From: a virus | Taxonomy: Duplodnaviria > Heunggongvirae > Uroviricota > Caudoviricetes | DNA: 39,262 nucleotides | IMG/VR virus record: IMGVR_UViG_2513237200_000009 | Strand: one strand, 5' to 3' | Part shown: one piece after another, positions 10,145 to 14,654 of the stretch | Layout: the number at the start of each line of letters is the position of its first letter | Position numbering within the stretch: position 1 is the stretch's first letter | Made by a program: the position numbers and the translations under genes | The notes under the pieces: model-generated | The model's input: the letters and a program-made list of their open reading frames with translations, nothing else | What the model was told of the DNA's origin: nothing | The model's database searches: none

Positions 10145-10711
10145 TCAGGGGGATTCATTACTCTTATTTGCCGGAAATTTTCTATAAATTGTGGAAACAC
10201 CCACATCAAAAATCAGTGCAATACGCTGTCTTGATTCTCCGGCCTCGAGTAAGCGTCCAATCTGTGCCCACTGTTCGGTGGTCAACTTAGGACGGCGTCC
10301 ACCTACTCTGCCTTTGGCGCGAGCTGCAGCAAGCCCCGCCCTGGTACGTTCAACTATCAGTTCGCGTTCCATTTCAGCCAGGGCACCCATGACATGAAAA
10401 AAGAAACGGCCCATTGGGGTACTGGTATCAATACTGTCAGTCAGGCTTCGGAAATTCACACCTCGCTGGCGCAACTCTTCTATCAACGTAACAAGATGCC
10501 GCATACTGCGCCCCAACCTGTCCAGCTTCCAGACAACCAAAGTGTCACCTGCCGATAATGTCCTGAGCAGTTTTTTCAGTCCCGGTCTGTCGGACTTAGT
10601 GCCACTGATTTTGTCCTCAAAAATCCGCTCACATCCCGCGCAGTTCAGCGCATTACGTTGCAAATCGGTGTTCTGGTCATTTGTTGACACGCGTACATAG
10701 CCAATAAGCAT
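10145..10711 (-). CDS. Hin/Gin/Pin-family serine DNA invertase
   Basis: N-terminus MLIGYVRVSTNDQNTDLQ (catalytic Ser), resolvase domain plus C-terminal HTH (GRRPKLT...); about 188 aa. Confidence 0.9.
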   Translation of the reverse strand: MLIGYVRVSTNDQNTDLQRNALNCAGCERIFEDKISGTKSDRPGLKKLLRTLSAGDTLVVWKLDRLGRSMRHLVTLIEELRQRGVNFRSLTDSIDTSTPMGRFFFHVMGALAEMERELIVERTRAGLAAARAKGRVGGRRPKLTTEQWAQIGRLLEAGESRQRIALIFDVGVSTIYRKFPANKSNESP

Positions 10712-10766
10712 GATCAATCCCCTGAATAAAAACCGGGGATGATGCCAGTTAGCCGTTATCTCTGCA

Positions 10767-10792
10767 TTTTCATAAACGTTGGTTTGGGAGAA
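10767..10792. repeat. hix/gix-like 26-bp inversion crossover site (left)
   Basis: TTTTCATAAACG TT GGTTTGGGAGAA; inner half fits the TTnTCnnAAACC half-site; 15 bp TTGGTTTGGGAGAAG recur inverted at 13593-13607. Confidence 0.55.
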
Positions 10793-11245
10793 GGCTCTGC
10801 ATTACCCGTTGGTGTCCCTGTTCCATGGCCTTCCGCCACTCCGCCAACAGGCTGGCTGAAATGCAACGGCGCGGCTTTTTCTGCTGAAGAATACCCGGAA
10901 CTGGCAAAGGCTTATCCGGCAAATAAATTGCCTGATTTACGTGGTGAGTTTATTCGCGGCTGGGATGACGGGCGCGGGGTTGACTCTGGACGAGGTTTGT
11001 TGACGGCGCAGGCGGAAACAAAGATAACTAACCACCACGGCAATGGCGGTAATGCTGATGATATTTCGGCTGGTGTCTCCGGTTCACCTCCCAAAAACTT
11101 TGTCAGAAACGCGGATTCGGCAGTTAATGCTGGTTCTGGTTTTACCGCTTTTGGCTCTGGAAATTTGACAATGAATGGTGTTACTTCTTATTTCGGTGTC
11201 CGTCCACGCAACATCGCATTTAACTACATTGTGAGGGCTGCATAA
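10781..11245 (+). CDS. alternative tail-fibre C-terminal variable cassette, currently not fused to the H constant region
   Basis: reading frame opens at the crossover site (..VGLGEGSALPVG...) and matches the H junction ..LGLGEA; ends TAATG overlapping tfa. Confidence 0.55.
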   Translation, partial: GLGEGSALPVGVPVPWPSATPPTGWLKCNGAAFSAEEYPELAKAYPANKLPDLRGEFIRGWDDGRGVDSGRGLLTAQAETKITNHHGNGGNADDISAGVSGSPPKNFVRNADSAVNAGSGFTAFGSGNLTMNGVTSYFGVRPRNIAFNYIVRAA

Positions 11246-11850
11246 TGGATAGCACTGTATTAAATAGCGAGTTTATTGCCACGAAGGCGGGGAATATTAC
11301 TGTCTATAATTATGATGGTGAAACACGGGAATATATTTCCATATCGACTGAATATCTTGCCGTTGGTGTCGGCATTCCGGCATGTTCCTGTTTAGATGCT
11401 CCAGGCGCATACAAAGCTGGTTATACAATCTGCCGTTCTGCAGATTTTAACTCATGGGAATATGTGCCAGACCATCGCGGTGAAATCGTCTTTAGCACCG
11501 CAACAGGAGAATCAAAAGAAATCACAGCTCCGGGTAATTACCCTGATAATACAACCACTATCGCCCCATTAACGCCATACGATAAATGGGATGGTGAGAA
11601 ATGGGTGACGGATACTGAGGCACAACACGGTGCCGCAGTAGAAGCGGCAGAAGCACAGCGTCAGTCACTGATTGATGCAGCAATGGCTTCCATTAGTCTG
11701 ATTCAGCTGAAATTACAGGCCGGGCGGAAACTGACGCAGGCAGAAACAACCCGGCTTAACGCTGTGCTGGATTACACTGACGCGGTGACGGCAACAGATA
11801 CCAGCACCGCGCCTGATATTATTTGGCCTGTATTCCCTGAGACTGATTAA
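11245..11850 (+). CDS. tail fibre assembly protein (Tfa/gpG-like) of the alternative cassette
   Basis: 201 aa; C-terminus ...DTSTAPDIIWPVFPETD resembles lambda Tfa. Confidence 0.75.
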   Translation: MDSTVLNSEFIATKAGNITVYNYDGETREYISISTEYLAVGVGIPACSCLDAPGAYKAGYTICRSADFNSWEYVPDHRGEIVFSTATGESKEITAPGNYPDNTTTIAPLTPYDKWDGEKWVTDTEAQHGAAVEAAEAQRQSLIDAAMASISLIQLKLQAGRKLTQAETTRLNAVLDYTDAVTATDTSTAPDIIWPVFPETD

Positions 11851-12378: not shown

Positions 12379-13243
12379 CCGCCAGACTAAGTGACAGCCA
12401 CACGGTTGTCAGCCTGTGTTCTGCTCTGGAAATACACCGCAGCAGTTACCGGTACTGGCGAAAACGACGCGATACGGTTAATCCGGCACGAGTCAGGTTG
12501 TGCAGCGAAATACGCCGGGCGTGGAACCAAAGTCGGGGCTCTGCGGGCGCGCGCACTCTGGCTGAAATGCTGACTCAAAACGGCGTCCCGATGAGCCGTT
12601 ACCGTGCCGGACGTCTGATGAAATATCTGAACCTGAGCAGTTGTCAGCCCGGAAAACATCAGTATAAAAATGCCCGTCAGGAGCATACCAGCCTGCCGAA
12701 TCTGCTTGAGCGTCAGTTCGCAGTACCGGAGCCAGACCGGGTATGGTGTGGAGATATTACGTATCTCTGGGCAGGAAATCGCTGGTGCTATCTGGCGGTT
12801 GTTATGGATCTTTTGCCCGCAGGGTTATCGGCTGGAGTCTGTCAGCGCATGCCGATACCGCACTGATAAGCAGTGCCCTGCGGATGGCCTATGAGACGCG
12901 TGGCCAACCCCGGGATGTCGTGTTCCATAGCGACCAGGGAAGCCAGTATACAGGCCTTAAATATCAACAACTTCTCTGGCGTTGCAGAATAAATCAAAGC
13001 GTCAGTCGGCGGGGAAACTGCTGGGATAACAGCCCCATGGAACGCTTCTTCCGCAGTCTGAAAACAGAATGGGTGCCAACGAATGGTTACGCAGGCAAGG
13101 ACGAGGCCCGGCAGCAAATTAATGATTACATATTGAACTACTACAACAGCGTCAGACCTCACCATTATAACGGTGGGCTGACGCCGGAAGAGTCAGAGAA
13201 CAGATACCATTTTTACTGTAAAACCGTGGCCAATATTACTTGA
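12330..13243 (+). pseudogene. IS3-family transposase OrfB (DDE integrase domain), frameshifted
   Basis: -1 frame after A AAA AAG (12327-12333) is open to 12866, then the conserved continuation ([10 protein letters not shown]...HSDQGSQYT...[12 protein letters not shown]) sits in another frame from about 12811; a T4 run where T5 would restore the frame. Confidence 0.65.
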
Positions 13244-13251
13244 CCACTACA
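13224..13251. repeat. IS right terminal inverted repeat
   Basis: ccgtggccaatattacttgaccactaca; its reverse complement pairs with the left repeat. Confidence 0.7.
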
Positions 13252-13262
13252 AAGTAACTGGA

Positions 13263-14654
13263 TTAAACAGGCGCACAATAAACCCTCCAGGAAAAAGCAT
13301 TTGATGATGGTCTGCCGTCGTACATCTGGCAGCGGGCATAAAAGCCGGTATTTGTTACCTGATCATCCACGATCATTGAAACGTGAACATTATTAGGTGT
13401 GCTCTCGTAATCCGTTCTTATTCTTTCCGCGATACTGATAAAACGTGAAAGTTTAGGCAGTGCAATTGGGTAAACAACTTTAGCCAGTCCATTATCATTA
13501 GATCCACCGGTTCCAAATACTTCTATTGCACCATCTGACCAGCGTATCCATGCACCATTGGCATTAGCTCCTCGCTGAATGACATATCTGGCTTCTCCCA
13601 AACCAAGGTATGCGAGAAGACCAGCTACATCCTTTCCACTCAAATTGGTAAGCGTATTGTCCAGCGGTTGTTTACCTGCCAGCGCATTAAGCATTGTCGT
13701 GGCAAAGTTCGGATCATTCCCCAGTGCCGCCGCCAGTTCGTTCAGTGTATCCAGTGCCGCAGGTGCAGAACCCACCATTGCTGCAATCGCTGATTTCACA
13801 AAAGCTGTAGTGGCAATCTGTGTATTGTTGACCGACTGTGCCGCAGTAGGTGCTGTTGGCGTTCCGGTGAGTGCCGGACTCGACAGCGGTGCTTTTAGTG
13901 CCAGCGCATTGTTAATGGTGGTACTGAATTTCGGGTCATTGTTAATGGCTGCGGCAATTTCTTTCAGTGTGTCCAGCGTGGCTGGCGCACCGTTAATCAG
14001 AGCAGTAATAGCGGCCTGAACAAACTCAGTGGTCGCAATCCGCGTGGTGTTATTTCCTGCTGCAGGCGTCGGCGCTTTTGGTTCTCCGGTAAATGTCGGA
14101 TTATGTTTCTGCGCATACTGGGTATGAGGATCTTGTGCGGCAATGTGGTTTCTCATCTGGTCATCCACATACAGCTTTAATTCCAGGACTTCATCATCCA
14201 CGTATTTACGGGTTGCCAGCACTACAGCAGGGTCGATTTTCAGGGTGATATTGTCCGTACTGCTGGTAATCAGCACCATGCGCACGGTCTGGGTGCGCCC
14301 GCTGCCTTCAGCCAGTTGCGGCTTATAGCTTTCCGGGCAGTTGCCCACGGCAATCAATGCCCCGGACTCATCAAACAGGCCCACTTCACGTATCCACCAA
14401 CCGCCCTCGTTTTCAGGGATCACCTGTTCAGCAATAATCTGGCTGCTGTTCTGCGGGTCGATATAAAGCATATTCAGCGCAGCCCGGCGTTTCTCATTTA
14501 CCAGTGCCGTCTGCTTTGCGTCCGGCGTTGGCAATACTCCGCCGCCATCGCCCACCGCCATATGGGTAATTTTTAGCGGCACACCGAGCGCGGCGGCGCT
14601 GGCAAGTTTCGCCGCGCCAATATCCGTCAGCAGGGTATAAAATTTTGTGCTCAT
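13263..14654 (-). CDS. H: tail fibre protein gpH (constant N-terminal part plus currently fused variable C-terminus)
   Basis: 463 aa, N-terminus MSTKFYTLLTDIGAAKLA...MAVGDGGG like P2 H; the hix-like site lies in codons ..YLGLGE. Confidence 0.85.
   Translation of the reverse strand: MSTKFYTLLTDIGAAKLASAAALGVPLKITHMAVGDGGGVLPTPDAKQTALVNEKRRAALNMLYIDPQNSSQIIAEQVIPENEGGWWIREVGLFDESGALIAVGNCPESYKPQLAEGSGRTQTVRMVLITSSTDNITLKIDPAVVLATRKYVDDEVLELKLYVDDQMRNHIAAQDPHTQYAQKHNPTFTGEPKAPTPAAGNNTTRIATTEFVQAAITALINGAPATLDTLKEIAAAINNDPKFSTTINNALALKAPLSSPALTGTPTAPTAAQSVNNTQIATTAFVKSAIAAMVGSAPAALDTLNELAAALGNDPNFATTMLNALAGKQPLDNTLTNLSGKDVAGLLAYLGLGEARYVIQRGANANGAWIRWSDGAIEVFGTGGSNDNGLAKVVYPIALPKLSRFISIAERIRTDYESTPNNVHVSMIVDDQVTNTGFYARCQMYDGRPSSNAFSWRVYCAPV
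13593..13618. repeat. hix/gix-like 26-bp inversion crossover site (right, inside H)
   Basis: plus strand TTCTCCCAAACC AA GGTATGCGAGAA, inverted relative to the left site. Confidence 0.55.

Follow-up and report, generated by a model that had tools for sequence, protein, structure and literature searches.

Can the tail fibre of a P2-like prophage in Escherichia coli W be switched between two receptor-binding tips by site-specific inversion of DNA? The question is raised by a 39,262-bp stretch of viral DNA (IMG/VR record IMGVR_UViG_2513237200_000009; here called the window, by which we mean the whole stretch that was analysed), in which a gene for a serine invertase lies next to the tail fibre gene H. 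A first reading made from the sequence alone, which we call the original prediction, had described an invertible tail-fibre segment at this place, with a Hin/Gin-type invertase beside two inverted 26-bp sites. We conclude, with a probability of about 0.92, that the tail fibre of this prophage is switched at this locus by site-specific inversion of the Gin/Pin type (Din family). The window contains two recombination sites, an invertase of the appropriate family and two cassettes that each continue H in frame, and both orientations of the segment, joined exactly at the predicted junctions, are present among public genomes.

The window matches NC_017664.1 (E. coli W) from end to end with 1 mismatch and one 1-bp gap, and represents a P2-like prophage whose position in the host lies between rcdA and ybjL. 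The element has been named Rybb*W (P2) and assigned to the rybB site (Archer et al., 2011; PMC3032704). The same authors state that no large mobile element of W encodes genes of particular note, and the invertible segment is not mentioned (PMC3032704).

Recombination sites

The whole of the window was scanned with the generic hix/gix consensus TTNTCNNAAACCNNGGTTTNNGANAA, which was not derived from the window, allowing up to 3 mismatches. The consensus matches at two places only, with 1 mismatch each, where 0.01 matches are expected by chance and none of 100 shuffled sequences gave two or more. These places, 10767-10792 and 13593-13618, are the ones that had been proposed, and their coordinates and inverted orientation are now confirmed by software. 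By the half-site pattern TTNTCNNAAACC they are two 26-bp imperfect palindromes in inverted orientation (Table 1). The sites share the expected 15 identical bp, TTGGTTTGGGAGAAG, and when aligned with one another they make a 27-nt inverted repeat with 81% complementarity, so that the second site does align with the first, a point on which the original prediction had asked for a check. The central dinucleotides on the plus strand, TT (10779-10780) and AA (13605-13606), are reverse complements of each other, and recombination between the sites is therefore expected to give inversion rather than deletion; we infer the exact position of cleavage within the 15-bp identity.

As positive controls, the same pattern returned just two places in phage Mu, the centres of which are the annotated boundaries of the G segment (gix), and in phage P1 its matches are the crossover points annotated as cixL and cixR. 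The proximal site is identical at 26 of 26 positions to the site adjoining pinE in the e14 element, and phages Cartapus and pro483, record CP019275 and strain EC43 carry exactly the same two sites. The distal site is read in the frame of H, where it encodes LLAYLGLGE. Additional sites, which would make the locus a shufflon as in one P2-like prophage of enteropathogenic E. coli (EPEC), were considered and rejected, the scans of the window with a tolerance of 3 and of 4 mismatches both giving two sites only.

Table 1. Coordinates of the features of the module in the window (IS, insertion sequence; ORF, open reading frame; aa, amino acids; nt, nucleotides).
Feature	Position	Strand	Remarks
DNA invertase gene, 188 aa, Din family (Gin/Cin/Pin/Hin small serine recombinase)	10145-10711	-	Assigned by Pfam and identity
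Recombinational enhancer (sis) homologue, putative	10622-10693	-	nt 19-90 of invertase coding sequence
Invertase-proximal 26-bp site	10767-10792		Plus strand TTTTCATAAACGTTGGTTTGGGAGAA; predicted crossover at central TT, 10779/10780
Invertible segment	10780-13605		2826 bp with IS, ~1570 bp without IS
Silent alternative H C-terminus, collar-type receptor-binding tip, 154 aa	10780-11245	+	Lacks its own promoter and start codon
Tail fibre assembly chaperone gene (tfa) of silent cassette, intact	11245-11850	+	Caudo_TAP, E 1e-31
65-aa ORF, 3' part (codons 9-65)	11819-11994	-	Severed by IS; intact in EC43 (WP_001440573.1)
IS3-family insertion sequence, IS911-like organisation, 1257 bp	11995-13251	+	Breakpoints from comparison with IS-free EC43
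65-aa ORF, 5' part (GTG start, codons 1-8)	13252-13276	-	Mapped from EC43; overlaps end of H by 14 nt
Currently expressed variable H C-terminus, gp53-like tip, 113 aa	13263-13605	-	phrog_2557, E 3e-15
Distal 26-bp site, inside H	13593-13618		Plus strand TTCTCCCAAACCAAGGTATGCGAGAA; predicted crossover at central AA, 13605/13606
Constant part of H (aa 1-349 plus 2 nt)	13606-14654	-	Outside segment; expressed from late operon

The tail fibre gene and its two cassettes

In the orientation found in the window, H is a gene of 463 aa (13263-14654, minus strand) in which a constant part is joined to a tip encoded within the segment. The constant part contains the N-terminal Phage_tail_fib domain of Pfam (E 4e-65) and is 95% identical to H of Cartapus over 349 aa. 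The tip now joined to it matches Pfam Gp53-like_C weakly, at an E value of 0.002 that falls under the curated cut-off, and related copies of this tip are labelled 'gp53-like domain-containing protein' by RefSeq. No relative of solved structure was found for it at E values up to 1.

The silent cassette at the invertase end encodes a collar-type tip, with matches to Pfam Collar (E 7e-15) and to phrog_523, tail collar fibre (E 8e-66), and it has 55% identity with the StfE cassette of e14. Comparison of the H C-termini with known receptor-binding domains, which the original prediction had suggested, places this tip with the T4 gp37 tip (2XGF; E 1.5e-15). Downstream of the distal-site codons for GLGE the silent cassette keeps the frame of H, and both cassettes thus continue in frame. 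The tfa product that accompanies the collar tip is 87% identical to TfaE of e14. It is not the case that each cassette has a Tfa-type gene of its own, as the collar cassette carries a Caudo_TAP Tfa and the gp53-like cassette carries a 65-aa ORF instead. In genome records with the segment flipped, RefSeq annotates H as 504 aa with the Tfa gene directly next to it, while the gp53-like cassette appears as a 'hypothetical protein' adjoining the invertase. The exchange of the H C-terminus for a promoterless cassette together with an intact tfa, as had been foreseen, is therefore found as an annotated 504-aa H in the flipped assemblies.

Orientation of the segment in public genomes

When the region 10000-14700 was used as a megablast query, four complete genomes matched its interior only (query positions 780-3610 or 777-3607), at 99.9%. 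One of the flipped records, NZ_CP026085.1, compared with positions 7501-16500 of the window, has 100% identical flanks and the segment 10776-13606 in the opposite direction, and in NZ_CP118014.1 (strain B-766) the segment is likewise inverted between 100% identical flanks. B-766 is the NRRL number of E. coli W. The exchange was then followed to the nucleotide by building the two 240-nt junctions that result if strands are exchanged at the centres of the sites. Both predicted junctions are present exactly in NZ_CP026085.1 and NZ_CP118014.1 and are absent from records of the window type, and the window's own junctions show the converse pattern, being absent from the flipped records. All of the W records, flipped or of the window type, carry the same IS at the same place, which means that at least one inversion postdates the insertion of the IS.

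The segment is also found in both directions where the module has no IS. In the urine isolates 82.0312 and 82.0311 a 1571-bp segment is inverted between flanks that are 100% identical. In the wider set of E. coli genomes, apparently clonal sets of strains are in opposite states: DG341-1 differs in this way from DG342-2, DG343-1 and DG351-2, which are of equal genome length, and strain 64 from strain 61. Among 5,426 complete E. coli genomes, H is joined to the gp53-like cassette in 35 and to the collar cassette in 544, and the gp53-like cassette lies silent beside the invertase in 70. A single orientation would have spoken against the proposed switch; both are found in assemblies of the same strain lineage.

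Two further observations concern these genomes. Two complete genomes of 4.83 Mb, NZ_CP026085.1 and NZ_CM135829.1, are labelled 'DH5alpha'. Both contain the W prophage, including the IS, at 99.9-100% identity, and the segment faces opposite ways in the two; the label is probably wrong and the strains of the W lineage. In strain A28 (NZ_CP028747.1, ~1291861-1293688), the junction of H with a gp53-like cassette and that of the invertase with a gp53-like cassette lie within 1.8 kb, which points to a module with a gp53-like tip in each of its two alternative cassettes.

The invertase

The intact 188-aa gene beside the proximal site encodes a Gin/Pin-type (Din family) serine invertase, in agreement with the Hin/Gin-type enzyme originally predicted. 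Its product contains the Pfam domains Resolvase (E 2.3e-53) and HTH_7 (E 1.5e-15) and aligns to the structure of Mu Gin (3UJ3) over residues 1-184 with an E value of 8e-93, while the gamma-delta and Tn3 resolvases match at 1e-28 to 1e-34 only. In ungapped comparison it is 87% identical to PinE of e14, 79% to Cin of P1 and 76% to Gin of Mu, and it is 100% identical to a Cartapus protein annotated as 'Mu phage Gin invertase homolog'. The catalytic nucleophile Ser9 is kept. The start codon is likely the ATG at 10711, as in RefSeq, and not the TTG at 10717; the proximal site lies 56 bp upstream of it.

In Hin, residues K47, R48 and K51 of helix B and Q151, R154 and L155 of helix 1 of the DNA-binding domain contact the Fis-bound enhancer, and these residues are conserved only among enhancer-dependent invertases (McLean et al.; PMC3798978). 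The invertase of the window has their equivalents in K46, K47 and R50 and in the sequence Q-I-G-R-L of helix 1 of the DNA-binding domain.

Between the proximal site and the invertase start there is a weak terminator-like hairpin with a T run (10731-10750, minus strand), a match to consensus only, which might keep transcription of the late tail-fibre operon from running on into the invertase gene.

The putative enhancer

A Fis-bound enhancer is likely to lie at nt 19-90 of the invertase gene, judging from homology. The P1 record annotates the same nucleotides of cin as 'enhancer of Cin-mediated C-segment inversion', and the corresponding stretch of the window aligns with the P1 enhancer without gaps at 78% nucleotide identity, compared with 68% for the remainder of the gene. 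The degenerate Fis core GNNYRNNWNNYRNNC is matched at 7 of 7 positions at nt 71-85, in the window gene and also in Mu gin. When Fis sites were called de novo with the degenerate 15-bp core, one good match fell inside the enhancer homologue and several outside it; the core being too degenerate by itself, the call of the enhancer rests on homology to the P1 annotation. A distance of ~86 bp separates the near edge of the enhancer homologue from the middle of the proximal site, and the spacing in Mu and e14 is the same within 1 bp. It would be consistent with this arrangement, and with the contact residues of the protein, that inversion depends on Fis and the enhancer.

The insertion sequence and the 65-aa ORF

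The original description of the module stands with regard to its sites, its invertase and its cassettes, but it missed an IS3-family element that lies within the segment. This element has terminal inverted repeats, an orfA with an HTH_Tnp_1 domain and an orfB with rve domains, and it is flanked by a target duplication of 3 bp (AAG, 11992-11994 and 13252-13254); RefSeq lists its transposase under the IS3 family, with programmed frameshift. In the window, one T is missing from a run of five T (~12811-12814) compared with every public assembly that was examined, and orfB is thereby broken into two frames, the cause being either an error of sequencing or a mutation that truly inactivates the gene.

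The insertion splits the 65-aa ORF at codon 9. This ORF occupies the place where other modules carry a Tfa gene, and it belongs to a family of ~57-65 aa found in Escherichia, Enterobacter, Salmonella, Citrobacter, Hafnia, Xenorhabdus and Erwinia, with identities down to ~60%. It matches phrog_5400 (E 1.4e-25), and a Pfam search with it gave no credible family and no Tfa signature. A tblastn search against phages produced two matches only. In phage S164 a homologue lies at the same position, in the silent cassette. If the 65-aa ORF is needed for the gp53-like tip, the orientation of the window would be defective in E. coli W, with the collar/Tfa orientation being intact.

Proposed mechanism and alternatives

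We propose that dimers of the invertase would bind the two 26-bp sites, one near the start of their own gene and the other in H at the boundary of its constant and variable parts, and that, by homology, a Fis-bound enhancer at nt 19-90 of the invertase gene would assemble the invertasome. Strand exchange at the central 2 bp (TT 10779-80 and AA 13605-06) would invert 10780-13605. In the orientation of the window the predicted product is a 463-aa H with the 113-aa gp53-like tip, followed by the IS-disrupted 65-aa partner ORF; in the other orientation it is a 504-aa H with the 154-aa collar-type tip, followed by the intact Tfa chaperone gene. A population of lysogens could in this way give rise to particles with either receptor-binding tip, as with the G segment of Mu, the C segment of P1 and the P segment of e14, which presupposes that the prophage is inducible. 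We infer that the resident invertase, and not a paralogue, does the flipping, and a change of host range between the orientations would be expected by analogy with these systems.

Several observations weigh against this reading or against parts of it. The two orientations have been read from separate assemblies and not from one culture. The case for Fis and the enhancer is one of homology within a coding stretch that is also conserved at the protein level; the stretch encodes the most conserved part of the invertase, and coding constraint could explain its nucleotide conservation. When positions 10000-12100 were scanned for sigma-70 promoters, no match was obtained on the minus strand ahead of 10711, and the total number of matches equalled the expectation from shuffled sequence. 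NC_017664.1 has 3 places similar to the invertase gene, that is, two further Din-family homologues, and Din invertases can act in trans, PinQ of the Qin element being known to invert the P segment of e14 (PMC12529663). Moreover, the IS breaks the 65-aa partner ORF in the orientation of the window, and it may be doubted that functional fibres are made in that state.

One possibility is that the catalyst is another Din invertase of the host acting in trans, such as Gin of WMu or Pin of a lambdoid remnant, and that the resident gene is silent or dispensable. Mu, Rac and Qin elements are indeed listed for W (Archer et al.; PMC3032704), and together with the two homologues, the PinQ precedent on e14 and the want of a clear promoter for the resident gene they provide some basis for it. 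However, the resident gene is intact and keeps all of its catalytic and Fis-contact residues, it lies at the canonical spot with an enhancer-to-site spacing as in Mu and e14, and the same invertase protein goes with the module in IS-free strains whose segments flip. We regard action in trans without the resident enzyme as very improbable. It is scarcely credible that the opposite orientations are errors of assembly, or the outcome of rare RecA-dependent recombination between short inverted repeats. Although the orientations do come from assemblies rather than reads, and the P2-like prophages of W proved hard to assemble (PMC3032704), a perfect identity of 15 bp is too short to mislead an assembler or to drive efficient homologous recombination. 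In addition, the breakpoints fall exactly within the two consensus sites, the event recurs independently in unrelated clonal sets and in IS-free copies, and there is experimental precedent in P2-like prophages (PMC4272514).

The most probable of the alternatives concerns not the flipping but its outcome. The switch may be an effective relic in E. coli W, in which the segment still flips but the prophage, or one of the two states, gives no infectious particles, so that there is no real switching of host range. The IS inside the segment, which interrupts the ORF that adjoins the gp53-like tip and is conserved in Enterobacterales, would fit with this, as would the annotation of a fil-family prophage gene as a pseudogene. 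Set against them are the structural, lysis, replication and regulatory genes of P2 type, all annotated as intact, and the collar/Tfa state, which the IS leaves unaffected; the loss of the 65-aa ORF may itself be harmless. On balance a relic seems to us unlikely, if by no means far-fetched. A quite improbable idea is that the switch also matters for the phenotype of the lysogen: PinQ-driven inversion of e14 is reported to yield StfE2 and to change the susceptibility of cells to other phages (PMC12529663), and a flip to the StfE-like collar form, maybe by other Pin or Gin enzymes of the host in trans, might likewise alter phage susceptibility here, with the 65-aa ORFs serving as a novel type of accessory protein that replaces Tfa for gp53-like tips.

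Relation to known inversion systems

As a tail-fibre inversion switch, the module has its closest kin in the PinE system of e14 and in the modules of other P2-like phages. The P segment of e14 agrees with it in the invertase (87%), the proximal site (26/26), the collar cassette (55% to StfE) and Tfa (87% to TfaE), and also in layout, with a constant fibre part, two convergent cassettes, a site and an invertase transcribed away from the segment. However, e14 is what remains of a lambdoid prophage, is defective and has pseudogenes among its fibre genes, whereas the module described here is part of a complete P2-type genome. The second cassette also differs, being StfP/TfaP in e14 and here the gp53-like tip with the 65-aa ORF, plus the IS.

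The modules of the P2-like phages Cartapus, pro483 and S164 and of the EPEC E2348/69 prophages have the same gene order (I, H, cassette, cassette', invertase, FI). They differ in the cassettes that are paired, which vary from phage to phage, and the IS is confined to the W lineage. In two P2-like prophages of EPEC E2348/69, having two and three sites respectively, inversion has been demonstrated by sequencing and PCR (Goldberg et al., 2014; PMC4272514); one of these prophages has three sites and four variants, compared with the two sites found here. According to the iLund4u preprint, the P2 hotspot often harbours a DNA invertase together with inversion of the neighbouring genes, and in a systematic survey the annotations tail fibre, tail fibre assembly and 'phage tail protein I' were enriched at programmed inversions (PMC9881135). 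Modules of this kind are common in Peduoviridae, and related ones are present in hundreds of E. coli genomes.

The G segment with Gin of Mu and the C segment with Cin of P1 share with the present module a fibre gene of Sc/Sv type with S-U and S'-U' cassettes, the 26-bp consensus and an invertase that is 76% (Gin) or 79% (Cin) identical, and their enhancer in the 5' end of the invertase gene has a putative counterpart here. However, their segments measure 3.0 kb (Mu G) and 4.2 kb (P1 C) with much longer variable parts, and the phages themselves are unrelated to P2. Furthermore, cixL of P1 overlaps the 3' end of cin, unlike the arrangement here, and the central dinucleotide of Mu is TC/GA. The Hin/hix system of Salmonella has the same enzyme subfamily, 26-bp consensus and contact residues, and its Fis-dependent enhancer within the recombinase gene has a putative counterpart here, but Hin sits inside its own segment and flips a promoter, whereas here the invertase is outside and coding 3' ends are exchanged.

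P2 itself has H, G, a terminator, fun(Z) and FI in this region and no invertase, and phage 186 has neither an invertase nor a second cassette. The statement in the original prediction that P2 and 186 are without such a module is therefore borne out by both records, even though gene K of 186 bears a crossover site. It holds for those two phages, and does not hold if it is taken to mean that the module is unusual among P2-like prophages in general. The site in 186 gene K is a lone one, annotated as a 'Mu-like inversion crossover site' (NC_001317.1, 12962-12987), and may be the remnant of an invertible module once present in the ancestry of the P2 family.

The prophage

The phage records nearest to the window belong to Peduoviridae. 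In the identical region of E. coli W, as annotated by RefSeq, the genes follow the order of P2 (int, the C/cox region, A, Q-P-O-N-M-L, lysis, R-S, V-W-J-I-H, FI-FII-E-T-U-D and ogr), and the full P2-type gene set is present, with the structural, lysis, replication and regulatory genes intact. The silent cassette and the invertase sit at the position of the P2 Z/fun hotspot, between H and FI. We considered the identity of the window with the classical phage W-phi and rejected it, since Wphi1 and Wphi2 are at other attachment sites and the element is Rybb*W (Archer et al.; PMC3032704).

Other genes are carried as cargo. A gene for a restriction endonuclease with a GmrSD domain (26908-28689, minus strand) lies between the replication and portal genes, at the old/tin position of P2; a KAP P-loop NTPase (36678-38129, plus strand) is encoded between int and cI; and an unannotated ORF of 307 aa (17147-18070, plus strand) is found between the homologues of S and V. 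There is also a truncated fil-family pseudogene (35026-35181, minus strand).

Significance

The kind of module described here is already known, and essentially identical copies are annotated elsewhere, so that the importance of the finding beyond correct annotation is slight. What is mildly new is the flipping among public assemblies of W, the presence of an IS within the segment and the uncharacterised 65-aa partner ORF. The rybB-site prophage of E. coli W, an industrial strain, has an active phase-variable tail-fibre locus on which the genome paper is silent, and where published assemblies of W and its derivatives disagree here, the cause is biological and not an error. The locus is also a clean example of an IS that rides inside an invertible segment without stopping its inversion.

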